IMG/VR virus record: IMGVR_UViG_3300021364_000005
Origin: a virus
Lineage: Duplodnaviria; Caudoviricetes
Length of the DNA: 64,000 nucleotides
Reading direction: 5' to 3' (one strand)
Translations under genes and position numbers: made by a program
Shown here: one piece after another, positions 1 through 57,395 of the stretch
How the letters are laid out: each line of letters opens with the position of its first letter
Numbering within the stretch: the first letter of the stretch is position 1
Notes under the pieces: model-generated
What the model was told of the DNA's origin: nothing
Database searches by the model: none
Seen by the model: the letters and a program-made list of their open reading frames with translations, nothing else

Positions 1-660
1 CCTATATTAGGATATTTTCTATATGTAGGACTTGGAATAAGTGTAACCTTCCATAGGTATTTGACACACAAAGCATATGAAACTTATCCTATTTTAGTTA
101 AAATTGGAACTTTGTTAGGATCACTTAGCAATACTGGTAGTAGTATTGTTTGGGTTGCAATACATATGAATCATCATCGTCATGCTGATACTGAAAAAGA
201 CCCACATAGTCCTAGACACCAAGGACTTAAAACTTTTGCATTAGAATACGATTTAGATACCAGTCGTGTTAGATGGAAAATGAAACATCTGATCGGAGAT
301 CCATTCCATATGTTTTTGCATAAGTACTACTTTGCTGTTATTGCAGCTTGGAGTTTGCTTCTGTTTTTAATTGGTGGATTTTATTTAATGGTATTTTTAC
401 ATTGGTTTCCTATGATCATTAGCGGCGTAATGAGTAATATTGTAAACTATATTGGCCATAAGCCAGACTGGTGGGGCGGTTATAGACGTTATGATACTCG
501 TGACGATAGCATAAACAATTGGTTATGGGCAATACCAAGTTGGGGCGAAACACTACATAATAATCATCATAAACGCCCATACAGTGCTACTCATGGAGAA
601 CGCTGGTGGGAAATTGACATCGGTGGTTATATTGTAAGGATGATTCGTACGGATGTTTAA
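1..660 (+). CDS. Delta-9-type fatty acid desaturase, 5'-truncated by the window edge
   Basis: Frame +1 is open from base 1 (PILGYFLYVGLGISVTFHRYLTH). Three His boxes (HRYLTH, HMNHH, HNNHH), TM segments and the WGE-LHNNHH motif. Confidence 0.9.
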   Translation, partial: PILGYFLYVGLGISVTFHRYLTHKAYETYPILVKIGTLLGSLSNTGSSIVWVAIHMNHHRHADTEKDPHSPRHQGLKTFALEYDLDTSRVRWKMKHLIGDPFHMFLHKYYFAVIAAWSLLLFLIGGFYLMVFLHWFPMIISGVMSNIVNYIGHKPDWWGGYRRYDTRDDSINNWLWAIPSWGETLHNNHHKRPYSATHGERWWEIDIGGYIVRMIRTDV

Positions 661-2227
661 AGGTGTTAATTGTATTCTGTTCACAGGCAGTAGTAGAACA
701 GATCCGTTCCGCACACAAGAAAAACTAGACAGTGCATATGCTCAAGTAATACGTCCTTTGGGTGCGTATCAAATTGCAAATTTACTTAGGCAAGAAGGAT
801 ATACTGTACAAGTTATAGACAGATATCCTTGGATTATTAGGAATTCTGATGATTTGTTTCCTATTCTTGAAAGGTATCTAGGTGAAGATACATTATGGAT
901 AGGGTATAGTAATACCTTTTTTGAGCATAGAATACAACAAAGTAAAATAAAAGATGGTTATCAAAGTCCTGAAGCAGACAGTATTGTTCTTAGCGACAGG
1001 GGAGTTCGCTATCTGAAAAGAAAAGCGTATGAAGCAAATCCTAATATAAAATTTTTAGTAGGCGGAGCAAAGACTTGGAGATGGAGCCAAGGCGACGAAA
1101 GGTTATTTGATTACTATGTTGAAGGCTATGCAGACGAAGCAGTCATACGCTTAACTAATTATTTGGCAGGCAAAGGCGAAAAGCCGCCTATGAAAAAGAA
1201 TGATGATGAACATAGTTATACAATTAACTATGATCAAAAAGGCAGCCTGTTTGATTTCAACAATAGTCATCACCATTGGCACGAAAGTGATCATTTAATG
1301 TGGGGAGAATCTCTTCCTATCGAAATTGCAAGGGGTTGTATTTTTAAATGTGCTTATTGTAGTTTTCCATTAAATGGAAAGAAGAAACTAGACTTTATAC
1401 GTGATCCGCAAAAACTCATAGATGAGCTAACAGAAAATTACGAAAAGTACGGAGTCTATCAATACATTTATAGTGACGATACACACAACGATAGTGTAGA
1501 AAAGTTAGAGTTGTTATATAACAAAGTTTATAGTAAACTACCTTTTAAAATTGAATTTAGCACTTACTTAAGATTAGACCTTTTAGCTGCTCATAGCCAT
1601 ACTATAGAATTACTTCACGCAAGCGGATTGAGAGGAACATTTTTTGGAATTGAAAGTTTCAATCATGAAGCAAATAAAACTGTGGGCAAAGGTGCAAGTG
1701 AACAAAAAATCTGGGATAACTTATACAAATGTAAAGAAGTATGGAAAGATGACGTTGTAATACATAGTGGTTTAATAGTAGGATTGCCAAATGATAGTGC
1801 AAAAACTATTACTGCTTGGCTTGAAAAAGCAGTTGCTCCTGATAGTCCTATAGACTTTAGTATGATAGCAGAATTACAAATATTTCCAAAGTGGGGTAGA
1901 GATAGTCACTGGATGAATAAGATAGAGTTAAATCCGGATTTTTACGGTTATAAATTTGATGATCCTGAAAATGACTGGAATTGGACAAATAATACAGGAC
2001 TTACAAAAATTCAAGCTATGGACATTGCACAGGTTTATAGACAAAAACAACTTCTTAATAAACCTAATATGGGATGGATGACTTATTTACGCTGTGCAAG
2101 TGTAGGGCAAACAGTTGAGCAATATAAAAATACAACAATGAAAGAACACGTAGTTATACGAGATAAAGTTTTTCGTGACTACTGTGACAAACTATTAAAT
2201 GCAGACGTTTCAATTCACAGAAAATAA
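653..2227 (+). CDS. Cobalamin-binding (class B-type) radical SAM enzyme
   Basis: N-terminal B12-domain-like PLGAYQIANLLRQEGYTVQVID; EIARGCIFKCAYCSFP (CxxxCxxC); GIES and IVGLP motifs. Confidence 0.85.
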   Translation: MFKGVNCILFTGSSRTDPFRTQEKLDSAYAQVIRPLGAYQIANLLRQEGYTVQVIDRYPWIIRNSDDLFPILERYLGEDTLWIGYSNTFFEHRIQQSKIKDGYQSPEADSIVLSDRGVRYLKRKAYEANPNIKFLVGGAKTWRWSQGDERLFDYYVEGYADEAVIRLTNYLAGKGEKPPMKKNDDEHSYTINYDQKGSLFDFNNSHHHWHESDHLMWGESLPIEIARGCIFKCAYCSFPLNGKKKLDFIRDPQKLIDELTENYEKYGVYQYIYSDDTHNDSVEKLELLYNKVYSKLPFKIEFSTYLRLDLLAAHSHTIELLHASGLRGTFFGIESFNHEANKTVGKGASEQKIWDNLYKCKEVWKDDVVIHSGLIVGLPNDSAKTITAWLEKAVAPDSPIDFSMIAELQIFPKWGRDSHWMNKIELNPDFYGYKFDDPENDWNWTNNTGLTKIQAMDIAQVYRQKQLLNKPNMGWMTYLRCASVGQTVEQYKNTTMKEHVVIRDKVFRDYCDKLLNADVSIHRK

Positions 2228-8427: not shown

Positions 8428-9630
8428 ATGTTAAAACACAAAGCACTTGGTTACTATGTTGTTAATGGCAAAACTTTTTCTAGTAAGATTGCTGCTTGTA
8501 TTTATGCAACGCAAAATCATGCAAGTATAAGATGGCATTTTAACAATGAAATATTTGATTATTATCCCTGGCACATAGAACCTGAAGAAAGTTTAGATGA
8601 ACTTTATTATCGTAGAGCTAGGCAACTGCGTGAGCAGTACGATTATATCTGTTTAGCATTTAGCGGAGGTGGTGATAGTAACAACATACTAGAAGCATTT
8701 TTGCGTCAAGGATTATTCATTGATGAAGTTGTAACAAACATCATGGATGATAAAAATAAACTTACTACCAATAATAGTTTACAGATTAGTAATTGGAACG
8801 AAGGTGCTGAGTATAAACTCCAAACTGTAGATAGACTTAAAGAACTACAAAGTCGATCTCCTAATACTAAAATAAGTGTTATTGATCTAAGTAAAGGATT
8901 GTTTGAAATATTTAATTCCTACGGAGATGCAGGTTGGATAGAAAAAACTAGAGAACGAATGAACCCTAGCGGATTTATGCGTCATAATTTTTTACACATG
9001 AAAGAAATACGTAAAAGATTTGATAAAGATAAAAAGATTTGTATGTTATTAGGAATCGAAAAACCTCGCACTTTTGTAAAAGATGGTATGTTTAAAATGG
9101 CTTTTAGCGATAAGGCTGTTAATATAGCTACAGTATCAGAGTTTATTGAAGACTACGACAATACAGAAGTAGAATATTTTTATTGGCATCCTGATGCTGC
9201 TGCAATAATTGCCAAGCAATGTCATGTTATAAAGCGTTGGTTAGAATTCAATCCTAGATTTTTAAAGTATTGGTTGCCTAAAGACACAGGCGAAATATGG
9301 AGTAACCATAGGAAGTATCACGAAAGGATACTTAGACCTTTGATATATAATTCAACATGGCATGAAACTTATTGGCAGGCAAATAAAAGTACTAAAGATT
9401 GGTATTCTGAAATTGACGACTGGTTTTGGAAGCAACACAGCGGAACAAAGGAACACGCTATATGGAGAGCCGGTTTAGATTATGTCAAAGAAAATGCAAA
9501 AGATTGGATGATGCCTGGTGACACCGAAGGTTTAAAAGGATTTTTGCATAGTTATGATATTGGAAAACTAAAAACTATTAATGCAGGTCAACCCACACAC
9601 CGTTCGCATATGCTTGGACTTTATTCGTAG
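8428..9630 (+). CDS. PP-loop family protein, paralog 4
   Basis: LAFSGGGDSNN; clear paralog of 4555..5739. Confidence 0.7.
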   Translation: MLKHKALGYYVVNGKTFSSKIAACIYATQNHASIRWHFNNEIFDYYPWHIEPEESLDELYYRRARQLREQYDYICLAFSGGGDSNNILEAFLRQGLFIDEVVTNIMDDKNKLTTNNSLQISNWNEGAEYKLQTVDRLKELQSRSPNTKISVIDLSKGLFEIFNSYGDAGWIEKTRERMNPSGFMRHNFLHMKEIRKRFDKDKKICMLLGIEKPRTFVKDGMFKMAFSDKAVNIATVSEFIEDYDNTEVEYFYWHPDAAAIIAKQCHVIKRWLEFNPRFLKYWLPKDTGEIWSNHRKYHERILRPLIYNSTWHETYWQANKSTKDWYSEIDDWFWKQHSGTKEHAIWRAGLDYVKENAKDWMMPGDTEGLKGFLHSYDIGKLKTINAGQPTHRSHMLGLYS

Positions 9631-11167
9631 TAGTATTGTAAATCATCATACCATTTTCGCCAGTCAGTGCATCTCTTGTAGTAGTATCCATATTTGCTAA
9701 TTTAGCATAGTTACCGAACGTTGTTCCTTGGTCTGGTTTAAATGTAGCAGCTATTGCTGTACTACCTGCTGCATCTGTTGTGTGTATTTCTACATTAGTT
9801 GGTACTACATTAGTGCTAACTGTTCCATCTACCTTAGCTACAATTTTTGCACTATCTATATAGTCAGTGCCGTCATGTCCTCTCCATTGGATTCTATGCA
9901 ATACGTCAGTGTCTTGTACTGCTGCTGGAGCGGTAGTTGTTCCTCTACTAAATGCAAGTCCTAGTCTTGGACCAACGCCAGGAAAGTTTGTTGCGCCAAT
10001 TGAATAGAAAGGCATTCCTGTTGGAGCTGATGTTATACCTGCATGAATACCAAAAGTTCTAAATGTTCCTGCACTGTCAATACTTGCTCGTGTAATTGGT
10101 GCACCTGAACTATTGTTAGTAACAAATTCAAGTAGGCCTGGTAATTGTTCGTCAGCTACTGTGCCGTCAGGGTCAACACTTGCTTTGATACTTGCGTTAG
10201 AACTTATATCATTACCGTCCCAGCCGCCAAAGATAATTTGTCCTGTTGCGTCACCTGCTTGTACAGGTGCCGGACTGTCTATAGTGCCTCTATTGAATAG
10301 TACACTTATAGTTGCTCCGCCGTTGTCATCATAGAATCTCTCAAAACGTCCAGCTGCAAAAGCATAGTTGTCTGCTTCACTTTTAACTAGTATTCTGTCT
10401 AATGTTGCTGTTCCTTTTACAGCTTCTGCTAGTAAACTACCCGCAACACCGTCTACTAGTAATGTGCTACCGTCTGAATAAACACTACCTGTTAAGTCGC
10501 CATCTACACTACCAGTTACATCTCCAGTTAAGTTACCAGTTACATTACCAGTTACAGAACCTGTATATTGAGCAGACGCTCCATCGGCACTTGGATTTAA
10601 AACTGTTACTAGACCGTCGTTAGATTTAACAGGACCTAGTAGTTCTCCAGTTACTGTTCCGTTAACATCACCTACTAAGTCACCTTGAAAGTTTGTTGAA
10701 ACAACATTTGTTGCAACAACATTACCTGTTAAATCACCAGTAACGTTACCTGTTAAGTCACCTATAAAATCGTTTGCTGTCATGGTTGACGCTGCCATTT
10801 CTAAATTGCCAGTATCTACCATTGTTGAGCTGTCGCTGCCTAAAATGTTTATTTCGTAAGAATTGCCTGCAACAACACCATCTCCTGTACCGCCTGATGG
10901 TGCCGGAACTGTTACCCATGCACTTTGTGATGCATTATATTGTAAGTACTCACCGTCGGCTACTGCTCCTGCTTCTACATCGGTAAGGTCTGTTAATACA
11001 GTAGCACCGCCACCGCCGCCACCTGTAGTATCAACTGCAACACCGCCTGCTGTTGTTCCGTCTCCTACAAATAATTTTTTGGTATCAGTTACATAAACTA
11101 ATTCACCTTCTGCTGGTGTAACTAGTAAACGTTCTGCGTCTGTTCCTCTTCTTAAGCGTAATGCCAT
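9578..11167 (-). CDS. Tail fibre-like structural protein
   Basis: N-terminal MALRLRRGT...EGELVYVTDTKKLFVGDG anchor motif typical of large myovirus fibres; GDLTG/GNVTG repeats; two RGT-x-xPxxVQxxD modules. Confidence 0.7.
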   Translation of the reverse strand: MALRLRRGTDAERLLVTPAEGELVYVTDTKKLFVGDGTTAGGVAVDTTGGGGGGATVLTDLTDVEAGAVADGEYLQYNASQSAWVTVPAPSGGTGDGVVAGNSYEINILGSDSSTMVDTGNLEMAASTMTANDFIGDLTGNVTGDLTGNVVATNVVSTNFQGDLVGDVNGTVTGELLGPVKSNDGLVTVLNPSADGASAQYTGSVTGNVTGNLTGDVTGSVDGDLTGSVYSDGSTLLVDGVAGSLLAEAVKGTATLDRILVKSEADNYAFAAGRFERFYDDNGGATISVLFNRGTIDSPAPVQAGDATGQIIFGGWDGNDISSNASIKASVDPDGTVADEQLPGLLEFVTNNSSGAPITRASIDSAGTFRTFGIHAGITSAPTGMPFYSIGATNFPGVGPRLGLAFSRGTTTAPAAVQDTDVLHRIQWRGHDGTDYIDSAKIVAKVDGTVSTNVVPTNVEIHTTDAAGSTAIAATFKPDQGTTFGNYAKLANMDTTTRDALTGENGMMIYNTTTNKVQAYANGVWVDLH

Positions 11168-12450: not shown

Positions 12451-12747
12451 TTAGTTATACTTTAAAAGTGGACAAGCTAACATGAAATAACTAAGTTCTT
12501 TTTGATTTTCAAATCCAACTGTAAGTTTTGTTTGCATTGTTCCATCCTTTACTACGGTTCTTGGAGTAACAAAGTATCTACCTTTTAAGTTTGTATCAAT
12601 CCATCTTGTGATAGAATCTTGTAAGTTATACCTTTGTTCTAAATCAACAGTGTCAAAAAACTCCGGCAAGAAATCTACTTTCCTGTTACCGAATATATTT
12701 AATGGATTTGGTTCTTTAAGCCGCGTCATAGTGAACTGTCTGACCAA
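12451..12747 (-). CDS. Hypothetical protein
   Basis: 98-aa ORF in operon context. Confidence 0.6.
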   Translation of the reverse strand: MVRQFTMTRLKEPNPLNIFGNRKVDFLPEFFDTVDLEQRYNLQDSITRWIDTNLKGRYFVTPRTVVKDGTMQTKLTVGFENQKELSYFMLACPLLKYN

Positions 12748-14029
12748 ATGGTCCTTCTAAGTTTTTATCTCTGTTGCTGTGAATTAAAAATACTGTATCG
12801 CAGTAGTCTGGGTCACCCCATGAATCCCAAGCATACCCGTCTGTAAACATAATAAACTTTTTAGGTTGTATGTCTTGTTCTTTCATATAGTTCCAGTTGC
12901 ACATAAAATCAGTGCCGCCACCGCCATAAATTTCATAATCGGTTAACGTTTCTCCGCCGTCTGCTGTAAATGTTTGTTCGTTGTATACAGCAGTATCAAA
13001 ACACCATACAGTAATTTTGTAATCTTTGTATTCGTCCATAATGCCTTTAATTTCACTTAAGAAATCTTTAGCTTGTGCATCACCAATAGACCCGCTCATA
13101 TCAATACTAACACAAAGATCAATAGTGTCCTCAAAGTTCATACCTGGAAGTATTGCACCAGTATGCCATGCTTTGCGTGATGGGCGACTAAATGTATAAT
13201 CATTGCGTATTGTGCTTTGAATCTGTTGACGCAAAATTTCACGCCAATTCATTTTAGGCTCAGTAAGCTCTTTAATCATACGCTGTACTTCACCAGGCGT
13301 ATTGCCAGCACCTGCTGCCTGTGCAGCCTGCATTACACCTTCTTTAATTTCATCTTTAATTTTGCGAAGTTCTTCTTTAGAATACTTAGGTTTGCCTTTA
13401 GAAACAGCGTTGCCGTTGCTGTCAGTAGTTTCTTCACTACCGCCACCTTCGCCTTCGTCGTCTCCGTCTAGGTCTAGGTGCTCGTCTAACAGTTCACCTA
13501 ATTGCTTAAGGTATTCTTCACCATTCTTCTTTGCTTCTTCGTAAATGTCATCATACACATCTTCTGATGACCAGTTATCATATTTAAAGTCTTGGAAGCA
13601 ATCTACAAGTTTAGGTTTTTCACCAATACGATCACGTACAAGCAAGTTGTTTACAATATAGTCGGCAGCAATGTTATAGATAAGTGGTATTCTATCACCT
13701 CTACGTCCTAAATGATCAAATACGCAATGTAGGATTTCGTGTGCAATAACAAACTCAATTTCCTTGTTTGACATTGCATTAAAAAATTGTGTGTTGTAGT
13801 AAAGGTTACGCCCATCAACCGCCGCTGTAGGACACCAATCATCACCGCATACAATTCTAAGACGTGTAGCCATGTTACCAAAGAACGGATGTCGAAGCAA
13901 CAAACCAACTCGTGCAACGACAATTCTGTCTAAGACTTCTACACGCATTGCTTCTAATGCTTCTTGCGAAATATCCGGATCAGGTGTCCAGTGTTTCGTG
14001 CCCTCTAAGTTTCTCATTGGATATGCCAT
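12716..14029 (-). CDS. Metallopeptidase-like (HEXXH) plus VWA-domain protein (DUF2201-like), MoxR partner
   Basis: AHEILH Zn motif; MIDAS DMSGS; GGGGTDF; FTDG. Confidence 0.85.
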   Translation of the reverse strand: MAYPMRNLEGTKHWTPDPDISQEALEAMRVEVLDRIVVARVGLLLRHPFFGNMATRLRIVCGDDWCPTAAVDGRNLYYNTQFFNAMSNKEIEFVIAHEILHCVFDHLGRRGDRIPLIYNIAADYIVNNLLVRDRIGEKPKLVDCFQDFKYDNWSSEDVYDDIYEEAKKNGEEYLKQLGELLDEHLDLDGDDEGEGGGSEETTDSNGNAVSKGKPKYSKEELRKIKDEIKEGVMQAAQAAGAGNTPGEVQRMIKELTEPKMNWREILRQQIQSTIRNDYTFSRPSRKAWHTGAILPGMNFEDTIDLCVSIDMSGSIGDAQAKDFLSEIKGIMDEYKDYKITVWCFDTAVYNEQTFTADGGETLTDYEIYGGGGTDFMCNWNYMKEQDIQPKKFIMFTDGYAWDSWGDPDYCDTVFLIHSNRDKNLEGPFGQTVHYDAA

Positions 14030-23664: not shown

Positions 23665-24117
23665 TTATGATTGCTTAGGATAAATGTTGTGGCAGCCATT
23701 TTCTCCATCTTCGGAGACTTCGATAACAACAAAGCGGCCTGGATACTTTGTGTTAATTTCTTCATATAGGTCATCTGCAATCATCTCGCAAGACTTATAA
23801 TCAAGATTTAGTACATCATCTTTATAAAGATTTTCTAACCAGCGTTTGAACTGGATAAATTCAATTTCTCTGTCACTGTGTTTGACACTAATTGTAACTT
23901 TAAAATGGAACATATGGCGATGAGGATAACCTAAAAAGCTAACATCATACTCATCGCCTGTTGCTAGAGCAGGATCTTCTAGTGCCGCAGGATATTTATG
24001 AATTCCTTCCTTTTGAAAAGTGACCCAAATACTGCGGTTTACTTTCGATTCCATATAAATTTTCTTATCTTCTTCTCGCATCATGCGTAACATACCTTCA
24101 TAATAACGTTCTTGCAT
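23665..24117 (-). CDS. queD: QueD-like T-fold protein (6-carboxytetrahydropterin synthase or the DpdL paralog)
   Basis: Metal-binding His triad (EGIH...HRH-F), IEFIQFK, SCE-IA, V-EDGEN. Confidence 0.75.
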   Translation of the reverse strand: MQERYYEGMLRMMREEDKKIYMESKVNRSIWVTFQKEGIHKYPAALEDPALATGDEYDVSFLGYPHRHMFHFKVTISVKHSDREIEFIQFKRWLENLYKDDVLNLDYKSCEMIADDLYEEINTKYPGRFVVIEVSEDGENGCHNIYPKQS

Positions 24118-24124
24118 TGTTTAT

Positions 24125-24153
24125 AGTATACTTTCATAGTAAGATCTTGTCAA
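24125..24153 (-). promoter_or_regulatory. sigma70-type promoter for the queD-GT-PRT unit
   Basis: TTGACA-17-TATACT, nested in the 3' end of 24134..24667. Confidence 0.75.
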
Positions 24154-30317: not shown

Positions 30318-33011
30318 TTAATCTCCAAAGTCAAATAAACTTGTAAATGTGTTAGATTGTTTTGTGCTATCGATATCATAGTTTAGCACACCAATTAAGT
30401 TATCAATTTTATTATCAATAATAGTTGCTTCCATAGCATCGCCATCAAATGGCAATTCTTTGAACCAATCTGGCAAACGCAATTCATCTGTTGGATATGC
30501 AACACTTGTATACCCTAATGGATTCTGCTTGAGTTTGCACACAATAACTTTCATACCATCTACAATCTCTTGCGAATACTTGTCACCATTCATACGCTTC
30601 AGTGTGTTCCAGTTAATGCTTGCTCTAACGTGCCCTGGCATATTTGCCTTGCCTTGCTTTTCTTCAAGACGCTGATAGTGCCCAATTTTGTTAGCACGTT
30701 TAGGAGCACCTTTTTCCCAACCCGGTCTATTTTTAAAATCACGCCTAAAGTCAGTAATACGTTCTAGTATTTCTTTTTCGCCTTTTTCTTGTAGTACCAT
30801 CATCAGCACTTCGCTTAGAAACTCTTGCATATACACAGGTGTGTCTGATCTACGCAAGTCTAAGCCCATTGCTTTTACTTTGCCTGGCTTGCCATCTGTG
30901 TCTGAACGGAAGCCTTCAACATCATATACCAATGCTGCATAACGTTTCTTTGTAATGTACAAGCCGCTTTCAGCAACAATCTCTCTACCTGCTGCAATAA
31001 CGTCTGATCGGCTCTTTGGACAGTGAAATGCTTTTTGCATAAAGTCTTGGAATGTGCTATTTGCCTCTTCTGCGACTTGATCATATAGAGTAATTACATT
31101 GTCTTTACTCCATGGAATAGATCCGTTGTCAATTTGTTGTTTTAATACAGGATATGCACTAAAATACACAGAGTCTGTATCACCATATATTACGCTTTCA
31201 CCTACATGATCATAGGATCCTGTAATAACTTTGTTAACTTCTGCTGACATATGCTTTACAATAGTACGGCCTGATAATGTAGTACTTTGTCCAATACGTT
31301 TATCAAAAAAGCGACAGCCAGGGTTAAGAATGGCACCATAAAGACTGTTAAGGTTAATTTTCTTAACCAACTGACGTTTGTCCCAAAAAGCGATTTCTGC
31401 TTCATTTCCTGCATCCTTTGCTTTCTTAAGCATTTTCTGTAGATCTTTTCTTTCCGCATACCACCTCTTTAGAATTCCAGGAATAACACCTTCAAATTCT
31501 GTTGTAAAAATTGTGCCATTTGAACTTAGCATCCAAGGCATATTACTGTCAAATATTAGTTTGTAAATTTCTGCTCCACTTAGTACGTCTGAACGACCGT
31601 CTTCCCAGTCAATAGTTAGAGCAATGTCTTTGCGTTGGTCCATAACTGCTTCATATTCTTCTGTACTGAAGCGTCCTTCCCATGAACCTGCAAATGACTT
31701 TTTCTTAAGCGTCATATCTTCATGAACACGAGCTTCTGACATCTCAGGACGTATTTGTCCTACAATAGTTTCTGGAGCCATATTCAATGCACGAATCACA
31801 CTTGGATACAGACTGTTCAAGTCCATTGAACCAATCCATTTGTGAACACCTTTTTTAGGAAATGCAACATAAGCACCAGCGGCTGCTGTATTCTCATCAT
31901 CACGCTTTGGACGATTAGGAACTTGTAATCCTCTATCATGTGCTTCATTAATAATTGCTTGTTCTGTAACAGCAACAGCACCCATAGTTGTTTGTAGCAA
32001 AACAGTATTTGCGTGTGCCAGCTCGTTTGAAAGATCAATAAATCTTAGTTTTTTGTCCAGCTTGTCTAGTAGTGCAACGTCTTGTCTATTATATTCGATA
32101 AATGTTTCAAAGTCGTTGTTGTATAACTGATCAAGTGTTCCTTCATATACTGTTTTACGTTCACCAACTTCAAGTTCGCCAATAGCATCAAGACGATATG
32201 TGTGTCTTTCTTCATATGTGTATTTGCGATATAATTCTAAACTGTCTAAATGCACTCTGCCCACAAAGTCATAAGTTTCACTTGTTTTTCCAAACTTTTC
32301 GTATTCACGTTTTTTAGGCAGTTGTCCCCATAAGCAAAAACGTCTTGTGTCATCTGTACTTAAAACACGTTTAATTCTGTTAACAGTATACGGAACATCA
32401 TAACCTTCACTATTCCAGCCACTAAAGATATCTGCATCCTCTAGCAAATCAAGGAATGTAAGAAGCATTTGTCTCTCACCATTTCCTTCTTTGTCGTTTG
32501 GATATAAAATAACATCATCGCCCCAGCGATCTTTACACATTTTTTGTGCTTCTTCAAAAGGTAATCCCTTTGGCGGAACTGCAAGTGTAATAAGTGCATC
32601 GAGCCATTGTAAATGTACAGTGATAGCTGTAATTGGCATAAACGGATCTTCAACTGGAGCAAATCCTCGCTCTGGATCAAAGTCGGTCTCGATATCCCAA
32701 AACGCAACATTTAATTTAGGTGCGTCTTGATTAAGATAATTTTCACTTAAACATTGAAATATTGGATTAATATCGCTTTCGAATAAGTCTTTGCCTTTGT
32801 TTATTGCAATTTCTTTACGAAAGTCTTTTGTATTTTTGCAAACAATACGTGTTAGATTGTCGCCATATACACTTTTGTATTTGCCACGTTCGTCTTTATA
32901 ATAAAACGTGTATTTTGCTTGGTATTCTCTAAAATCTCTTTTACCATCTTTGCGTTCAACACATCTAATAATGTCTTGGTCGCGATCAAAGAAAGCATCT
33001 ACGTAACTCAT
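30318..33011 (-). CDS. polB: Family B DNA polymerase (gp43-like)
   Basis: ExoI WDIETD, DLNSLYPS, K-NLNSLYG, YGDTDS, KKRY; no intein visible. Confidence 0.97.
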   Translation of the reverse strand: MSYVDAFFDRDQDIIRCVERKDGKRDFREYQAKYTFYYKDERGKYKSVYGDNLTRIVCKNTKDFRKEIAINKGKDLFESDINPIFQCLSENYLNQDAPKLNVAFWDIETDFDPERGFAPVEDPFMPITAITVHLQWLDALITLAVPPKGLPFEEAQKMCKDRWGDDVILYPNDKEGNGERQMLLTFLDLLEDADIFSGWNSEGYDVPYTVNRIKRVLSTDDTRRFCLWGQLPKKREYEKFGKTSETYDFVGRVHLDSLELYRKYTYEERHTYRLDAIGELEVGERKTVYEGTLDQLYNNDFETFIEYNRQDVALLDKLDKKLRFIDLSNELAHANTVLLQTTMGAVAVTEQAIINEAHDRGLQVPNRPKRDDENTAAAGAYVAFPKKGVHKWIGSMDLNSLYPSVIRALNMAPETIVGQIRPEMSEARVHEDMTLKKKSFAGSWEGRFSTEEYEAVMDQRKDIALTIDWEDGRSDVLSGAEIYKLIFDSNMPWMLSSNGTIFTTEFEGVIPGILKRWYAERKDLQKMLKKAKDAGNEAEIAFWDKRQLVKKINLNSLYGAILNPGCRFFDKRIGQSTTLSGRTIVKHMSAEVNKVITGSYDHVGESVIYGDTDSVYFSAYPVLKQQIDNGSIPWSKDNVITLYDQVAEEANSTFQDFMQKAFHCPKSRSDVIAAGREIVAESGLYITKKRYAALVYDVEGFRSDTDGKPGKVKAMGLDLRRSDTPVYMQEFLSEVLMMVLQEKGEKEILERITDFRRDFKNRPGWEKGAPKRANKIGHYQRLEEKQGKANMPGHVRASINWNTLKRMNGDKYSQEIVDGMKVIVCKLKQNPLGYTSVAYPTDELRLPDWFKELPFDGDAMEATIIDNKIDNLIGVLNYDIDSTKQSNTFTSLFDFGD

Positions 33012-43238: not shown

Positions 43239-43910
43239 CTATTTATCAATAGTAGGGTCAACAACTACTTCTTCAATTTTACGGATATTGTTACCTATGA
43301 AAATATTTAATAAAGATAGTACTTTTGGACTTTTTACATAAAAATAGTAACCATGACAAAACCCTGATGTTTTAATATATTCATATGCACGAGTACCTAT
43401 TTTAATTTTATCCCTATTTGCATCAATCCATGCTGCAAAATCTGTACTTACTCTGTTTTTTAAAGTAACTCTATACTTAAAATCAGTAGGTCTTTTTAAT
43501 ATAGCTACTCTTGGGATTTCGTTTATTAGGTCTTTTAAATTATCACTTGGGCTGTAGTATTTGCATTCTTTATAAAGTTTGTCAGATATGCCAAATAAAA
43601 ACTTAGGACTATTGGCATATAAACTAATAGATCCCATTTCTATTCTAATCATGTAATCTGTTTTAGTTTGGCTTAGTTTTTGTAAAAGGTATTTTGCATC
43701 CAAAAAGTCTTCCATACTTACTGGAATTTCTATATATGCTTTTCGCAGTATAAGTTCAGTTCCCTTATCATATTCGTGTTGAATACTTTCTAGCATAGAT
43801 CTAGCATAGGCAAAATTTTTATCTCTAAAAATATGCGCTATGCTATTAAAAAATTCTAGTTTATACCAATATTTCTCATAATATTTTTTAGGTGAATTAA
43901 ACTTCTTCAA
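43239..43910 (-). CDS. Hypothetical protein
   Basis: 223 aa. Confidence 0.6.
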   Translation of the reverse strand: MKKFNSPKKYYEKYWYKLEFFNSIAHIFRDKNFAYARSMLESIQHEYDKGTELILRKAYIEIPVSMEDFLDAKYLLQKLSQTKTDYMIRIEMGSISLYANSPKFLFGISDKLYKECKYYSPSDNLKDLINEIPRVAILKRPTDFKYRVTLKNRVSTDFAAWIDANRDKIKIGTRAYEYIKTSGFCHGYYFYVKSPKVLSLLNIFIGNNIRKIEEVVVDPTIDK

Positions 43911-46149
43911 CTAAAATCTCTCCGGTTCTTAAAGATATAGTATTTTCATCTGCATCATGCACAATTTCTACTACACCCCCATCTTTAAGATTTCCAAAAA
44001 GTAATTCTCTTGATAGAGGACGTTTAATTTCCTTGTCAATAACACGTTGTAAAGGTCTTGCTCCCATTTTAGGATCAAAGCCTTTTTCTACAAGGTAGTC
44101 TAATGCATCATCGGAAATGGTAATTTTAACATTTTTATCTTTGACCATTGTTTTTAATTCTAACAAGAACTTGCCAACAATTTTCATCATTGTTTCTTTA
44201 CCAAGTTTTGCAAATGTAATTGTAGCATCTAATCTGTTACGGAACTCAGGAGCAAAAAAGTTCTTAAGTTCTTTATCATCATACTCGTTATCATTATCAT
44301 TGCCAAACCCGATAGTATTCTTTTCAGCTTCCTTAGCACCTAAATTAGTTGTTAATATAAGAACACTATTTCTAGCATCTGCTTCCTTGCCATTTGAGCT
44401 TGTTACTTTTCCGTTGTCCATAATCTGCAAAAGGATCTGAGACACGTCTGGGTGAGCTTTTTCAATTTCGTCTAGCAATAACACACAGTTAGGATTTTCT
44501 TGTAGTTTTTCAATTAATAATCCACTAGTTTCTTCATGCCCAACATAGCCTGGAGGCGAACCAATAAGTTTTGCGACAGAGTGTTTTTCTTGATATTCAC
44601 TCATATCAAATCTTACAAGCTCTACTCCTAAATGTGAAGCAAGTTGTTTTGCAGTTTCTGTTTTACCAGTACCTGTTGGCCCCATAAACACAAATGAACC
44701 AATCGGGCTTGTTGGTGCTTTTAGCCCTGCTTGGGCAACAAGGATTTTGTCAACAATATTTTCGATAGCTTCATCTTGTCCATAAACAACAGACTTCATA
44801 TTCTTTTCTAAATTAGCAAGATTTTCTGTTTCTTTTTCAGCAACCTGTTCAGGTGGCAATTTAACATACTTTGCAAGCTCAAATTGAATGTTCTTTTCGC
44901 TTACAATTTTGTCACCTTCAAACTCGATCAAATTAAATCTAGAACAAGCAGCATCAATTAGATCAATTGCTTTGTCAGGAAGTTTTTTGTCTGGCTGATA
45001 TTTTACACTAAGTTTAATACTAGCATCAATAGCTTCTTCGGTAATTGTTGCATTATGATATTCTTCGTAGTATTGTTTGATGCCGTTTAGAATATCTTTA
45101 GTTACGGATTCACTAGGCTCTTCAACTGTAACTCTTTGGAATCTACGCATTAATGCTCTATCTGATTCAAAGTATTTTCTGTATTCTTCCCAAGTTGTTG
45201 ATGCAACAACTTTAAGATTGCCTTTAGTGAGAGCTGGCTTCAGCATATTTGCTAAATCGTTTGAGCTATTACCTCCGCCAGCACCTGCACCGTTCATCAT
45301 GTGAGCTTCATCTACAAACATGATGGCTTTGTCTTTCTTTGTAAGTGCATGAAGCACTAATTTAAACCGCTCCTCAAAATCACCTCGGTACTTGGAGCCT
45401 GCAAGCATTGCGCCGATGTCTAAATTATATACTTCATATTCTGCTAAGAAAGGCGGAACATTGCCATTTACAATATTCCATGATAAGCCTTCTGCAATAG
45501 CAGTTTTACCAACTCCAGGGTCACCTACAAGTAAGACGTTATTCTTATTTCTGCGTCCTAGAGCAAGTGCAATACTGTCTAGTTCTTCAGAACGTCCGAT
45601 TACTGGATCAATTTTTCCTTTTTTAACTTGAGCATTTAGATCAGTAGTAAATGCACGTAGAGCCTTTTGTGCTTGGCTATTAGTTTCTGAATCTTCTGCT
45701 TCTTCTGCAACTTCATTACTTACATATTCGTTAAATGCTTCTTTATCAACTCCGCCTTTATTTAAGTAGTAGCAAGCAGGTGTTTTCTTTTCTGCAAGTA
45801 TACTACTCATAACATCCTGAAGCTGAATAGTATTACGACCGTTGAATAAAACTTGTGTAAACGCACGATTTAAGATACGTTCTACAGTTTGTGTTTTTTT
45901 AGGTTTGAATTTCTTTGGCTCACCATCTTCGATAATTTTAATTTCTTCTGCATTCTTAAGATGATGTTCTAAACTAGATTTGATAAAATCTACTTCTGCA
46001 CCGAACCCTATTAAAAGTTGTGCAAAATTCTTTTCGCAAAGCATACTGAACAATAGATGTTCTACTGTTACATATTCGTGTCTCAATTTTTGTGCGTCTT
46101 TAATTGCTTTATCAAATACTGCTTGTAGTTCGTTACTTGGCTCTACCAA
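43897..46149 (-). CDS. clpA: ClpA-type Hsp100 AAA+ chaperone / protease ATPase subunit
   Basis: Clp N-domain (HEYVTVEHLL), D1 GDPGVGKT, D2 GPTGTGKT, IGF ClpP-docking loop, GARPL; no ClpB/C middle domain. Confidence 0.92.
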   Translation of the reverse strand: MVEPSNELQAVFDKAIKDAQKLRHEYVTVEHLLFSMLCEKNFAQLLIGFGAEVDFIKSSLEHHLKNAEEIKIIEDGEPKKFKPKKTQTVERILNRAFTQVLFNGRNTIQLQDVMSSILAEKKTPACYYLNKGGVDKEAFNEYVSNEVAEEAEDSETNSQAQKALRAFTTDLNAQVKKGKIDPVIGRSEELDSIALALGRRNKNNVLLVGDPGVGKTAIAEGLSWNIVNGNVPPFLAEYEVYNLDIGAMLAGSKYRGDFEERFKLVLHALTKKDKAIMFVDEAHMMNGAGAGGGNSSNDLANMLKPALTKGNLKVVASTTWEEYRKYFESDRALMRRFQRVTVEEPSESVTKDILNGIKQYYEEYHNATITEEAIDASIKLSVKYQPDKKLPDKAIDLIDAACSRFNLIEFEGDKIVSEKNIQFELAKYVKLPPEQVAEKETENLANLEKNMKSVVYGQDEAIENIVDKILVAQAGLKAPTSPIGSFVFMGPTGTGKTETAKQLASHLGVELVRFDMSEYQEKHSVAKLIGSPPGYVGHEETSGLLIEKLQENPNCVLLLDEIEKAHPDVSQILLQIMDNGKVTSSNGKEADARNSVLILTTNLGAKEAEKNTIGFGNDNDNEYDDKELKNFFAPEFRNRLDATITFAKLGKETMMKIVGKFLLELKTMVKDKNVKITISDDALDYLVEKGFDPKMGARPLQRVIDKEIKRPLSRELLFGNLKDGGVVEIVHDADENTISLRTGEILVEEV

Positions 46150-53491: not shown

Positions 53492-53832
53492 TAGTCACCT
53501 TTTCCAGGTGCTTCAGAAAAATATTTCATTTTACCTTCTACGCCGTGCCATTCTACAGCATCTTTAGGAACATCCTCATGCCGCACTTTTGTAATGACAG
53601 GCCAAAGCTCTGAATACTTTTGATTAAACTCTACCCAATCTTTTCCGTTTTCGTGTGTGTCTGGAAAAATAGCATCTGCAGGACATTCCGGCTCACATAC
53701 ACCACAGTCAATACATTCTGCAGGATTAATTACAAGCATATTTTCACCTTCGTAAAAGCAGTCTACAGGGCAAACCTCTACACAGTCCATATGCTTACAA
53801 TTAATACACGAATCATTTACTATATAAGTCAC
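53491..53832 (-). CDS. fdxA: 7Fe ferredoxin (FdxA type)
   Basis: [21 protein letters not shown]...[12 protein letters not shown]...YFSEAPG-GD. Confidence 0.95.
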
Positions 53833-54746
53833 TATAACCTCGCTAGTCTAATTAGCGTTGCCGCTAAGTTAATTTCAGGATCAACTACTAGGGTGTGATC
53901 CACTAACCCTTGTTTAATGATTAGAACTGCTTGATCTTGCTTTTCTGAATCTCCAAACAATTCTAAATTATCATACAACCAGCGATATACTTCTTCCATT
54001 TCTTCTGGACGGATAGTGCCACAAAGCAATTTACGTGCTTGCTCAATTTTACCGGCTTTAAATAATTCTACCATATCCAGTTTCCAGTCGCTCTCGCCTG
54101 TATCACCTTCATTAGGTTTGTTTAGTACACCATCAACTGAGTTCATCTGTACAGTGTTAATACATTTACGCAAGTCAGGATATGTTGCTTTTACATAGGT
54201 ATCGAGCGTATCCAAATCTGGATTAACACCTTCGGTAATAAGGATTTCAGCAACTCTAGCTGTAAATTCAGTTTGGTCAATTTTAGCAATGTGGAAACCT
54301 TGACACCTACTATGCAAAGCGGGTATAATACGATTTGGATAATTACAAGTAAGAATGAAACGAGCAGTAGTATGATACTCTTCCATAACACCGCGCAATG
54401 CCGCTTGAGCGTTTGGAGATAAGTAGTCAGCTTCATCTAATAATACAACCTTAAAGTCCCCGAATGGGATCATCTGTACAAAGTTTACAATTTTATCACG
54501 AACATCGTCTACTGAGTTTGTTCGAGATGCGTTAATTTCTAGTACGTCTAAGTCATTTACATCAAGTTCGTTAAAAAGTAATTTAGCAAGAGTAGTTTTA
54601 CCAATCCCGGCATTGCCACTAAACAGCAAATGCGGAATGGTTTTATCTTTTATCCAAGTTTGTACTTGCTTACGTTGTGCTTCATCTCTAAATACATAGC
54701 CGTCCACTGTCTTTGGACGATACTTCTCTACCCATAGTTCTTTCAT
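53832..54746 (-). CDS. Clamp loader ATPase subunit (gp44/RFC-like)
   Basis: WVEKYRP, G-AGIGKTT, EINAS, DEAD, SRC. Confidence 0.92.
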
Positions 54747-54963: not shown

Positions 54964-55638
54964 TTATTCTCTATTGCCAATTAAATGTAATAACATTTGG
55001 AATAGATTAATAAAGTTTAGATATAAGCTAATTGCAAATTGGATGCCGTAACGTGGGTCATTGCCATGGGCAAGATAAATCCGTTTAGCCATTTGAATAT
55101 CATATGCAGTCAATCCTGTAAAAATTATCACACCGATAACGCTTACAGCAAATGCAACAGCACTGCTGGCAAGGAACAAATTAACTACCATTGCAATAAT
55201 GATACCAATCAATCCTATCATTAGGAAAGTACCCATACTTGTTAGGTCTTTGTTAGTTGTATAGCCATACAAACTTGCTCCAGCAAAAGTTGCAGCAGTT
55301 ATGAAAAATACTTTTGCTATACTTACATCAGTATAAACTGCAAAAATAGGTGCAAGACTTACACCCATTACAACTGTAAATGCGTAGTAAAAATTTGTTA
55401 ATGTTCCTACACTCCAATTTTGTCCTGCAAAACTGTAAAATAAAATCATACCTAAAGGAGCAAATGCAAATAGCCACATAACAGGACCTAATGCATAGAT
55501 TAGTCCAGTAGCAAAAGTTAGATATGCTGTTAGTCCACTTACTGCAAGTCCTGCTGAAGTATGATTAAACATATTAAGCATAAAGTTACGCAATCCTTCG
55601 TCATAAACTTTTTGCTGTCGTAATGCTTCTATACTCAT
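54964..55638 (-). CDS. Bax inhibitor-1/YccA family 7-TM protein
   Basis: DEGLR-FM---FNH, FAGASLYGYTT-KDLT-MG-FL, TAYDIQ, A-SLYLNFINLF. Confidence 0.9.
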   Translation of the reverse strand: MSIEALRQQKVYDEGLRNFMLNMFNHTSAGLAVSGLTAYLTFATGLIYALGPVMWLFAFAPLGMILFYSFAGQNWSVGTLTNFYYAFTVVMGVSLAPIFAVYTDVSIAKVFFITAATFAGASLYGYTTNKDLTSMGTFLMIGLIGIIIAMVVNLFLASSAVAFAVSVIGVIIFTGLTAYDIQMAKRIYLAHGNDPRYGIQFAISLYLNFINLFQMLLHLIGNRE

Positions 55639-55639
55639 A

Positions 55640-55999
55640 TTAGTCTCCTATAAATTGTGCAAGTTCTGGAGCCTTCCATCCTTGTGGCTTCAGCACCTTG
55701 CCATCTTCACGTTTACGAACTTTGCCTGTGTCGGGATCAATCTTTGCAAAGTTTGTATCCATTACTTCTTTCCACGCACCTTCGCCGTCAAAGCCGCCTG
55801 CACGAATAGCACCCATAGTAACAACAAGAATATCAATAAGTGCATCAAGTTGTTCCACAGTATCATTTGCTTCAACTGCTTCTTGTAGTTCTTCGTATTC
55901 TTCTTTGATCAAACTGAGGTACATTTTGTAGTTTGCTTCACTAGGTTCTTGATCACACGCAGAACCAAACGTGTCAATATCTTTAAATGGATTTGTCAT
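55640..55999 (-). CDS. All-alpha NTP pyrophosphatase (MazG/DR2231-like)
   Basis: LIKEEYEEL...EQLDALID; V---NFAK; R-DGKVLKP-GW--P. Confidence 0.8.
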   Translation of the reverse strand: MTNPFKDIDTFGSACDQEPSEANYKMYLSLIKEEYEELQEAVEANDTVEQLDALIDILVVTMGAIRAGGFDGEGAWKEVMDTNFAKIDPDTGKVRKREDGKVLKPQGWKAPELAQFIGD

Positions 56000-56403
56000 T
56001 AAGCACCTGCTCCGAACGCTTCTGGTCTAATTTCTGCTGGACCGTCTGAATATTCAGCTCCAATTTGAACTTCGTCAGGTTTTTCTTCGCTAAATGCTAA
56101 GATGTTTTCTTGGTCAACCATACGAATTTCAAATTCGCCTTTTTCGTTTTCGATTTTTACACCACGAGTCCATCGACCGTGTTCGATCAAAATCCAGTGT
56201 CCAACTTCATACGGATCCTTATTTTCAGGACCTTTTGCATAAACTTGACCCCAGCGTGGATAGATACCCCTTGTGGTGCCATCATCGTCTCTTAAAATTA
56301 AACCACTTTTTGTTTTTTGTTCACCAAAGTGCATATTAGAAACAATGACACGTTTTCCAATAGCACGTACATCGCTGTTTATTGTGTTTAAGTTAATACT
56401 CAT
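55999..56403 (-). CDS. groES: GroES-like co-chaperonin
   Basis: RAIG-RVIV...KTKSGLIL mobile loop...G-V-A-GP...VG...IL-. Confidence 0.75.
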   Translation of the reverse strand: MSINLNTINSDVRAIGKRVIVSNMHFGEQKTKSGLILRDDDGTTRGIYPRWGQVYAKGPENKDPYEVGHWILIEHGRWTRGVKIENEKGEFEIRMVDQENILAFSEEKPDEVQIGAEYSDGPAEIRPEAFGAGA

Positions 56404-56816
56404 ACATCACCTTTTTTTACAAAGTCTCCATTTTCATCTTCTACCCATTCGTCGTCATCAAATTCTGCTAATTCAGCAGCAGTAGGTAAATTTTCTGTTT
56501 CTTCTACTTTCTTTTGTGCTCTACTTGAACGAGTTGTTTTTGTAGCAGGCTTTTCTTCTTCTGCTACAGGTGCAGATGCTTTAGAAGGTGTACGAGCTTC
56601 GTCAGCAACAGGTGCTGGGTTATCTTCATAGTAGTCTCGAATAATTTCTGCTCTACCTCTAATAATTTTGCCACCTGGACCTAGTTCGTCACCTCGAGCA
56701 TTTACTTTTGCATTGCCAACGGCTGGTGTTAATTCGTTTCGTTGACGCAACATATCCATATCAACAACTTTACCTTTGGCTGTTCTATGGACTGCTTGTT
56801 TGTTTTTCATAGCCAT
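56400..56816 (-). CDS. Hypothetical protein
   Basis: 138 aa; AGGAG SD; TAAGTA upstream. Confidence 0.65.
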   Translation of the reverse strand: MAMKNKQAVHRTAKGKVVDMDMLRQRNELTPAVGNAKVNARGDELGPGGKIIRGRAEIIRDYYEDNPAPVADEARTPSKASAPVAEEEKPATKTTRSSRAQKKVEETENLPTAAELAEFDDDEWVEDENGDFVKKGDV

Positions 56817-56838: not shown

Positions 56839-57360
56839 TTATCTTAAGAACTCACGCCAATCCAGGTCAAACTGGATTGAGTTTATTCTATGTACACCAA
56901 TCAAATACAGCACATAGCTTGCTACACTTGATCCACGTCCTACACCCCATACAATGTTGTTCTCACGCATAAAGTCTACAAGATATATCATATAGCGTAG
57001 CAAGTTGTTCATGTCACGTTTTTTAAACTCTACAAGTTCATTGCTTACTCTTGCTATTTCTTTATCAGTTTTGCATTTATTAAGAACCCAACTTTGTACA
57101 TCAATGGCTTTATATTCATCAGGCATAAACCATTCACTTTGACATACACCGTCAAAAGTCTTTTGATCTACATCTAATGGGATATACTTTTGCAATGGAC
57201 TCATACCTTGTTCTTCCATTGCATTGTTAAATTTATCTACATCATCACTAGGATCACATAGTACCACATGAACTTTATCCGCATGACCACTATAGATCAT
57301 ATCGATTAAATCACGGTTAGAGAATCTGGGTAAACCTAAATCATCTGTTTTCATTAGCAT
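56839..57360 (-). CDS. Stand-alone DnaE (Pol III alpha) fragment
   Basis: ELV-F...F-RENNIVWGVGRGSSVASYVLYLIGVH-I-S--FDL-W-EFL matches the DnaE GRGS segment; it stops before PDxDxD. Confidence 0.75.
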   Translation of the reverse strand: MLMKTDDLGLPRFSNRDLIDMIYSGHADKVHVVLCDPSDDVDKFNNAMEEQGMSPLQKYIPLDVDQKTFDGVCQSEWFMPDEYKAIDVQSWVLNKCKTDKEIARVSNELVEFKKRDMNNLLRYMIYLVDFMRENNIVWGVGRGSSVASYVLYLIGVHRINSIQFDLDWREFLR

Positions 57361-57366
57361 ATGTGT

Positions 57367-57395
57367 ATTTTACGATACATTTATTAAATTGTCAA
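57367..57395 (-). promoter_or_regulatory. sigma70-type promoter, probably giving a leaderless mRNA
   Basis: TTGACA-17-TAAAAT-6-ATG(57360). Confidence 0.65.

Follow-up and report, generated by a model that had tools for sequence, protein, structure and literature searches.

The N unit and its boundaries

The window, by which we mean the whole stretch of 64,000 nucleotides of DNA from an uncultured, giant, T4-like phage analyzed here, carries on its minus strand a coding sequence (56839..57360) that starts with ATG and encodes 173 amino acids followed by a TAA stop. On the evidence of the ORF list, Pfam, PHROG and AlphaFold2, we annotate it as the putative nucleotide-binding half, hereafter the N unit, of a split minimal Pol III alpha. 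Residues 95-172 matched positions 17-94 of the 260-position Pfam profile PF07733 (DNA_pol3_alpha; E 1.8e-10, 41.4 bits, the score cut-off being 23.9 bits), and the protein was matched over its whole extent (9-173, E 2.3e-46) by phrog_11127, a 171-position profile annotated "DNA polymerase". A phmmer search against PDB sequences placed residues 122-172 on residues 342-392 of E. coli Pol III alpha; in this alignment, G141-R142-G143-S144 therefore fall on E. coli G361-R362-G363-S364 and the last residue on N393. An earlier reading of the DNA, made from the sequence only, had described a 173-aa ORF corresponding to the GRGS-containing segment of DnaE and ending cleanly at EFLR-stop before the catalytic aspartates, and the Pfam match, the phmmer alignment and the structural superposition presented below all agree with this description.

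The N unit ends in ...DLDWREFLR-TAA, 8 residues ahead of the catalytic D401 in E. coli numbering, at the point where D401 and D403 would come next; its end thus falls in the loop that leads to the first catalytic strand. The arginine of its WREFL sequence is one position off R390, which lies in FERFL in the E. coli enzyme (phmmer alignment). The catalytic Asp triad is not on the polypeptide that carries the GS motif, and no DxD follows that motif in any frame of the window. Three parts can be distinguished within the protein. The GS motif G141-R142-G143-S144, typical of the Pol-beta-like nucleotidyltransferase fold, is encoded by the codons GGA CGT GGA TCA (56929..56940, minus strand). It lies within a region equivalent to the N-terminal subdomain of the DnaE palm (residues 75-173; 56842..57138, minus strand), delimited by structure superposition and built from helices, strand beta1, the GS loop and a last helix that closes with EFLR. 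Residues 1-74 (57139..57360, minus strand) form a small, sub-clade-specific alpha/beta domain, modeled with confidence by AlphaFold2. In established DnaE structures the GS loop grips the triphosphate of the incoming nucleotide. Residues G139, G141, R142, G143, S144, S148 and L151 (GVGRGSS) are invariant among 98 diverse members of the N-unit family. The N unit has no PHP, thumb, clamp-binding or OB domain and no complete fingers; Pfam detects in it just the PF07733 segment 17-94. The lack of an intein motif, already pointed out in the sequence-only reading, is in line with the absence of any Hint or intein domain match in Pfam at E<=10.

Structure of the N unit

The AlphaFold2 model of the N unit, computed from an alignment of 98 family members, reached a mean pLDDT of 96 and a pTM of 0.80. 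Using VIA-align, its residues 75/76-173 were superposed on residues 305-413 of M. tuberculosis DnaE1 (Z 12.6, rmsd 2.1 A, 95 aligned residues), while residues 75-173 were superposed on residues 277-393 of E. coli Pol III alpha (Z 10.1-11.4) and the comparison with PolC gave Z values of 8-12. When the model was compared exhaustively against 48,161 representative chains, only C-family polymerases scored above Z 3.4, the next unrelated chain being at Z 3.4. In the isolated model, strand beta1 (NNIVWGV) has no pairing strand.

The N-terminal domain was covered by no PDB chain in the structure searches, and an Atlas feature search with residues 1-74 returned nothing beyond chance level. ESM-Atlas models of PHP+palm proteins aligned with N-unit residues 7-173 (TM 0.62), and this match in shape provides a lead according to which the N-terminal domain may be a PHP remnant.

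Conservation, selection and spread of the N unit

A protein identical to the N unit was found on 7 independent metagenome contigs, one of which, the 134-kb ENA contig ERZ27251147 k141_250552, contains the window and matches it at 99.98%. In IMG/VR, 505 stretches encode relatives of the N unit. Among the best 80 of these, which are 75-86% identical to it, all 80 start with ATG, none contains an internal stop and all 80 end at the same C-terminal residue. The median dN/dS (Nei-Gojobori, 674 pairs with 0.05<dS<1.5) was 0.149, with a value of 0.217 for residues 95-173 and of 0.118 for residues 1-94, so that the strongest purifying selection lies in the N-terminal part. Neutral decay of homologues, which the sequence-only reading had named as a possible refutation, is not borne out by an omega of about 0.15, which indicates purifying selection. 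A continuous dnaE hidden by a sequencing error, also envisaged there, is ruled out by the common end residue of the relatives. To judge from this sequence conservation, the N-unit gene is real and functional, and not a pseudogene.

The family extends well outside the nearest relatives. Scanned in full with HMMER, 1.84 billion representatives gave 787 clusters (50% identity) at E<=1e-10. Within the top 150 clusters, nearly all sequences that reach the C-terminus of the query stop at precisely that point; the usual length is 160-190 aa, and about 15 shorter ones look truncated. Many family members align solely from about residue 60-79 onward. Homologues were also found by tblastn in cultured jumbo phages of 284-490 kb, namely the PA5oct group (47%), Phosso, Atu_ph07, XacN1, Rak2-like phages, SCTP-2 and RsoM2USA, identity to the cultured members ranging from 32 to 48%.

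No natural minimal fusion of N and C units was found among the longer homologues (360-666 aa), although this search was a weak one. One of these, P0273, joins the N unit to the small protein encoded downstream and requires TAG to be read as Gln, and was rejected as a gene-calling artefact; P0272, with a junction sequence identical to that of P0273, was assumed to be an equal artefact. The other longer proteins of 360-666 aa are joins with unrelated neighboring genes. A public gene call on a TARA scaffold from a relative of the window (L104 3001-4152) fuses the N unit to the small protein via TAG read as Gln, most likely an artefact of gene calling.

A conserved promoter abuts the start codon

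A sigma70-type promoter, TTGACA-N17-TAAAAT, lies immediately upstream of the N unit (57367..57395, minus strand; -35 box 57395-57390, -10 box 57372-57367) and agrees with the consensus at 11 of 12 positions. The -10 box is followed by 6 nt (ACACAT) and then by the ATG, ahead of which no Shine-Dalgarno sequence was found. This promoter is not placed in free intergenic DNA: it sits within the 3' end of an upstream 77-aa ORF (codons for L-D-N-L-I-N-V-S, then the TAA stop at 57370-57372), the -10 box overlapping that stop. Its conservation was evaluated on the 46 distinct upstream sequences provided by the 80 relatives and the window. Every position of the -35 hexamer is preserved in 44-46 of the 46, including synonymous third positions of Leu and Asp codons, while synonymous sites near the hexamer vary freely. 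In the -10 box, the T, A, A and last T are preserved in 45-46 of the 46, and the 6 nt that separate this box from the ATG are free to vary in sequence but constant in number. The proposal of the sequence-only reading that this gene has its own sigma70 promoter is therefore supported, since the promoter is conserved in all 80 relatives.

With 6 nt between the -10 box and the ATG, transcription is expected to start at or beside the A of the start codon, which predicts a leaderless mRNA. Such promoters are also more frequent than expected in the window, where TTGACA-N16-18-TAnnnT occurs 14 times (4.6 expected; none of 100 shuffles reached 14), 11 of the 14 matches being on the coding strand. From their sequence, consensus sigma70-type promoters that leave just 6-7 nt before the ATG, and no Shine-Dalgarno sequence, predict leaderless early mRNAs in this uncultured jumbo-phage clade. 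A similar layout (TATACT, 7 nt, ATG) was observed ahead of the window ORF 23665..24117, with its promoter region at 24118-24153 (minus strand), and also ahead of the first gene of the C-unit operon in the near relative G001 (L099 3194-3229, minus strand).

The probable partner: a C unit that starts at the catalytic aspartates

The remaining part of the enzyme was looked for in related genomes. A protein of about 190 aa, beginning with (M)PDIDIDF and hereafter called the C unit, was first found with the finger-domain model PF17657 in XacN1, Atu_ph07 and GAP32, where its length is 188-216 aa and the starts seen were MDIDIDI, MKNIPDIDIDF or ...TDIDIDF; in Atu_ph07 its ORF lies at about 58.3-58.9 kb and, in PA5oct, at 143,944-144,498. 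A C-unit profile then recovered one copy each in PA5oct, SCTP-2 and two near relatives of the window from IMG/VR, G001 and G002 (E 1e-61 to 1e-65). These near relatives are contigs of 268 kb (G001, N unit 83% identical to that of the window) and 236 kb (G002, 76%), estimated to be 66-75% complete. The C unit is accordingly present exactly once in 7 of 7 genomes (PA5oct, Atu_ph07, GAP32, XacN1, SCTP-2, G001 and G002), and the genome-wide check proposed in the sequence-only reading, a tBLASTn-type search for an ORF starting near PDxDxD, is answered positively in all of them. It was not found in G003, a 126-kb fragment estimated to be 34% complete. When PF07733 was searched over five complete related genomes, it detected the N unit alone, plus one stop-interrupted match of 13.4 bits, below the cut-off; matches to PF17657 in the related genomes were limited to the short C unit.

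Three segments of M. tuberculosis DnaE1 are matched in order by the C-unit profile: 413-424 (DIDIDF), 568-664 (K-x-D-x-L to RPG) and 763-788 (F-x-K-S-H-A-x-x-Y). Residue 413 of this enzyme is both the end of the structural match of the N unit and the start of the C unit. Expressed in E. coli residue numbers, the last position of the N unit is 393 and the first three of the C unit are M399-P400-D401, which leaves about 5 residues of DnaE missing. The C unit keeps the three catalytic Asp, the Lys before the third Asp, the HNxG strand, the RPxK of the fingers and the KxHAxxYA helix, and its invariant residues are D2, D4, D6, H30, G33, K62, D64, R131, P132, K134, H164 and Y168. It is devoid of thumb, PHP, clamp-binding and OB domains. 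Relative to DnaE, it lacks about 100 residues (the thumb) between DxD and the third Asp and about 80 residues (fingers) between RPxK and the KxHA helix, and nothing remains past that helix. The C unit is matched by phrog_11778, annotated "DNA polymerase", and itself matches at least 7,961 clusters (90% identity). In PA5oct, the C unit (L097 1495-2097, plus strand) has an acidic tail, ...EQEPDPFKLFS, which resembles the clamp-binding tails of phage polymerases; the other C units do not have it.

The isolated C unit was modeled from a shallow alignment of closely related sequences (27 sequences). Its residues 1-70, which comprise the palm strands, had a pLDDT <50, while the helical finger part was modeled with confidence; in a fold search, this helical part fell weakly on the PolC fingers (Z 5.0).

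No C unit was detected within the 64-kb window, either by a DxD/PDxDxD motif scan of all frames, by phmmer with three C units against all ORFs >=50 aa, by six-frame hmmsearch --max or by tblastn. This agrees with the sequence-only reading, in which no downstream continuation had been seen, and also with the N-C spacing of more than 200 kb in the nearest relatives. By analogy with these relatives and from sequence, the phage of the window would have a C unit of its own, and hence N-C pairing.

Co-occurrence, spacing and gene neighborhoods

The C unit matched 96 records in the phage collection. In cultured jumbo phages sorted by genus, the numbers of records with N and C units were 34/34 in Escherichia, 8/8 in Erwinia, 8/8 in Salmonella, 4/4 in Xanthomonas and 4/4 in Yersinia; these counts are based on strong N-unit matches, the remaining ones being weak and falling on the ordinary, full-length DnaE that some smaller phages encode. 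The N-C distance is 15 kb in XacN1, 34 kb in GAP32, 44 kb in PA5oct, 116 kb in SCTP-2, 182 kb in Atu_ph07 and 212-226 kb in G001 and G002.

The N unit is followed by a small phrog_14844 protein, a GroES/gp31-like protein and a gp44-type clamp loader, an order kept in five cultured jumbo phages. In the window, the phrog_14844 protein (138 aa; 56400..56816, minus strand; E 3e-14) is encoded 22 nt downstream of the N unit. It displays the motif VDMD..L..NE..AVGN..VNARGD.LGPGG, then a charged low-complexity tail, and its homologues hold an equal position in PA5oct, SCTP-2, GAP32 and Atu_ph07. The protein belongs to an unrelated conserved family and is a possible third partner. The GroES-like gene lies at 55999-56403 and the gp44/RFC-type clamp-loader subunit at 53832..54746 (minus strand), the latter being identified by the Pfam AAA and DNA_pol3_delta2 domains of the identical gene of L100. 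The complete PolB that the sequence-only reading had attributed to this phage is present at 30318..33011 (minus strand): it is a family B DNA polymerase of 897 aa with both polymerase (PF00136, E 5e-37) and exonuclease (PF03104, E 1e-14) domains. Together with a T4 gp9/10-like baseplate gene, the PolB and RFC/gp44-type clamp loader give the phage of the window the features of a group 2.2-type jumbo myophage.

The C unit also has conserved neighbors. A phrog_11058 protein of 235-250 aa, with an N-terminal C2H2-like zinc finger, is encoded directly upstream, and a phrog_11637 protein of 122-134 aa, with the motif FPFLS...WWWESNR, is encoded downstream on the opposite strand. In G001, this neighborhood is located at L099 2050-2805 (minus strand) and 400-768 (plus strand), and the arrangement is repeated in L096, L097, L098, L009 and L011.

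Relation to known systems

The window gene belongs to a family that has already been predicted in Rak2/PA5oct/Atu_ph07-like phages (Iyer et al., 2021). Iyer, Anantharaman, Krishnan, Burroughs and Aravind indeed proposed, in a sequence-based prediction, a split minimal Pol III alpha in group 2.2 jumbo phages, and suggested that this enzyme works together with PolB, either to make one of the strands or for repair (Iyer et al., 2021; PMC7824862). For the large marine jumbo-phage group PGC_A, PF07733 was reported as the most widespread of the genes unique to the group and the sole one among them to occur in at least half of its members (Weinheimer and Aylward, 2022). In the literature searched, we found no experimental work on, or activity of, a split minimal Pol III alpha, and the N- and C-unit genes are without mention in the PA5oct omics paper and in a 2026 jumbo-phage review. 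Beyond the 2021 prediction, what is new here is the precise placement of both halves, end to end, along solved DnaE structures, the selection statistics, the conserved neighbors of each half and a promoter layout that predicts leaderless early transcripts.

The N unit of the window resembles the known ones (PA5oct EST35_0288, Atu_ph07 gp316, GAP32_323 and XacN1 ORF245; PHROG 11127) in its length, its domain content and its end before DxD, as well as in the gene order (N unit, small protein, GroES-like protein, clamp loader) and in a genome that encodes PolB and a gp44-type clamp loader. It differs from cultured members in coming from an uncultured aquatic clade, in having its own 74-residue N-terminal domain and in a promoter that abuts the ATG; the N-C spacing is also larger in relatives from the clade of the window (>200 kb) than in cultured phages (15-182 kb). 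With bacterial DnaE (E. coli 2HNH/5FKU, M. tuberculosis DnaE1 5LEW) and PolC (3F2B), it shares the fold and the GS motif over residues 75-173 (Z 8-12.6), but unlike these enzymes it has no PHP, catalytic Asp, thumb, fingers, clamp-binding, HhH or OB domains, and the N and C units together represent about 290 of the approximately 1160 residues of DnaE. The intein-split DnaE of cyanobacteria (Synechocystis/Nostoc DnaE-N and DnaE-C) offers another comparison, as a C-family polymerase made from two distant genes. In cyanobacteria, DnaE is divided in the fingers, near residue 774, and a split intein rejoins the two parts. By contrast, the break in the phage enzyme is within the palm, after the equivalent of E. 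coli residue 393 and before that of residue 399, and as only about 5 residues are missing between the halves, there is no room for intein halves, so that any association would have to be non-covalent.

A proposed two-chain, thumbless C-family enzyme

Altogether, we consider it very probable that the gene at 56839..57360 encodes the N unit of a two-gene minimal Pol III alpha, a non-covalent and thumbless N+C enzyme that is auxiliary to PolB and transcribed early from a sigma70 promoter. The first interpretation given in the sequence-only reading, one subunit of an intein-less split C-family polymerase with its partner elsewhere in the genome, is favored by the complementary boundaries of the two proteins and by their one-to-one co-occurrence in relatives. 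From a mechanistic point of view, transcription by host sigma70 RNA polymerase from the conserved promoter abutting the ATG would take place early, and the N unit would be the first gene of a transcription unit that continues with the GroES-like, MazG-like and clamp-loader genes. The N and C chains would then associate without an intein, completing one beta-sheet, to form a thumbless nucleotidyltransferase of Pol-beta fold of about 360 residues. Transferases of the Pol-beta fold have their GS loop after strand 1 and their DxD on strand 2. In the phage pair, the N unit carries strand 1 (NNIVWGV) together with the GS loop, and the C unit carries every other strand of the palm. The unpaired strand of the N-unit model and the low-confidence palm strands of the C-unit model may fit such a completion of the sheet; since the C-unit alignment is shallow, however, its low pLDDT is only weak evidence for assembly. 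The most likely activity would be short-patch or auxiliary DNA synthesis beside the PolB replisome. With no thumb and few fingers, DNA-polymerase activity rather than another nucleotidyl transfer is an assumption on our part. Because the thumb and most of the parts that bind DNA are gone, short-patch or non-canonical transfer is no less plausible than the cooperation with PolB suggested by Iyer et al. A more specialized role for the pair is conceivable but rather unlikely: it would be the smallest known C-family enzyme, dedicated not to bulk replication but to a specialized transfer (template-independent addition, the handling of primers or the filling of gaps in modified DNA) and gated by the early, leaderless N unit, which is transcribed separately.

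Assembly of the two units could also serve a purpose other than templated DNA polymerization, such as template-independent tailing, the synthesis of a nucleotide signal or DNA modification. The Pol-beta-fold superfamily indeed holds many non-polymerase transferases, the phage already owns a full PolB, and the parts that are absent from the pair (thumb, most DNA-gripping fingers, clamp-binding and OB domains) are in line with such a role. Yet RPxK, KxHAxxYA and HNxG are DnaE-specific elements and not those of a generic nucleotidyltransferase, the structure searches returned just C-family polymerases, and the N unit belongs to a conserved block with the clamp loader, so that we regard this explanation as unlikely. 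The second interpretation of the sequence-only reading, an N unit that acts alone, seems very unlikely to us; such a protein would inhibit the host Pol III holoenzyme, or act as its decoy, or would be a regulator that binds nucleotides, and the C unit would be independent of it. Its confident fold as an isolated chain, its extra conserved N-terminal domain under the strongest constraint, its own early-type promoter and the distance that separates it from the C-unit gene are what such a role would explain. Against it, the boundaries of the N and C proteins are exactly complementary, the GS loop is meaningful only beside a metal site, strand beta1 is left unpaired in the isolated model, and the one-to-one co-occurrence of N and C units in every genome tested makes a stand-alone decoy or nucleotide-binding protein unnecessary. 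Finally, decay of a dnaE once captured by the phage, or a continuous dnaE broken by an error of sequencing or assembly, could be suspected from a protein that covers about 100 of the approximately 1160 residues of the enzyme and has no catalytic Asp, but this reading is refuted by an omega of about 0.15, by 80 of 80 intact relatives with identical termini, by hundreds of clusters of matching length, by the identical protein on 7 independent contigs and by the unrelated conserved family encoded next downstream.

C-family polymerases are usually taken as large, single-chain and strictly bacterial replicases. If the two-gene Pol III alpha proposed here is correct, a widespread two-chain nucleotidyltransferase core working beside PolB would bear on the origin of the bacterial replicase from Pol-beta-like transferases, and a split enzyme of this kind would bear on the division of labor between polymerases in giant phages.

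Other genes of the window

Several other genes of the window deserve mention. A Bax inhibitor-1 family protein (PF01027; 224 aa, multi-pass membrane protein) is encoded at 54964-55638 (minus strand), within the replication block, with a MazG-like pyrophosphatase to one side and the clamp loader to the other. A ClpB/ClpA-like double AAA+ protein of 750 aa (Clp_N, AAA_2, ClpB_D2-small; 43897-46149, minus strand) and a DnaJ-like gene at about 46.2-47.0 kb make up, with the GroES-like gene, an unusually rich chaperone set. A 529-aa protein (9578-11167, minus strand) carries an Mtd_N domain, i.e. the N-terminal domain of the major tropism determinant, and a 437-aa protein (12716-14029, minus strand) combines DUF2201 metallopeptidase and VWA-like domains.
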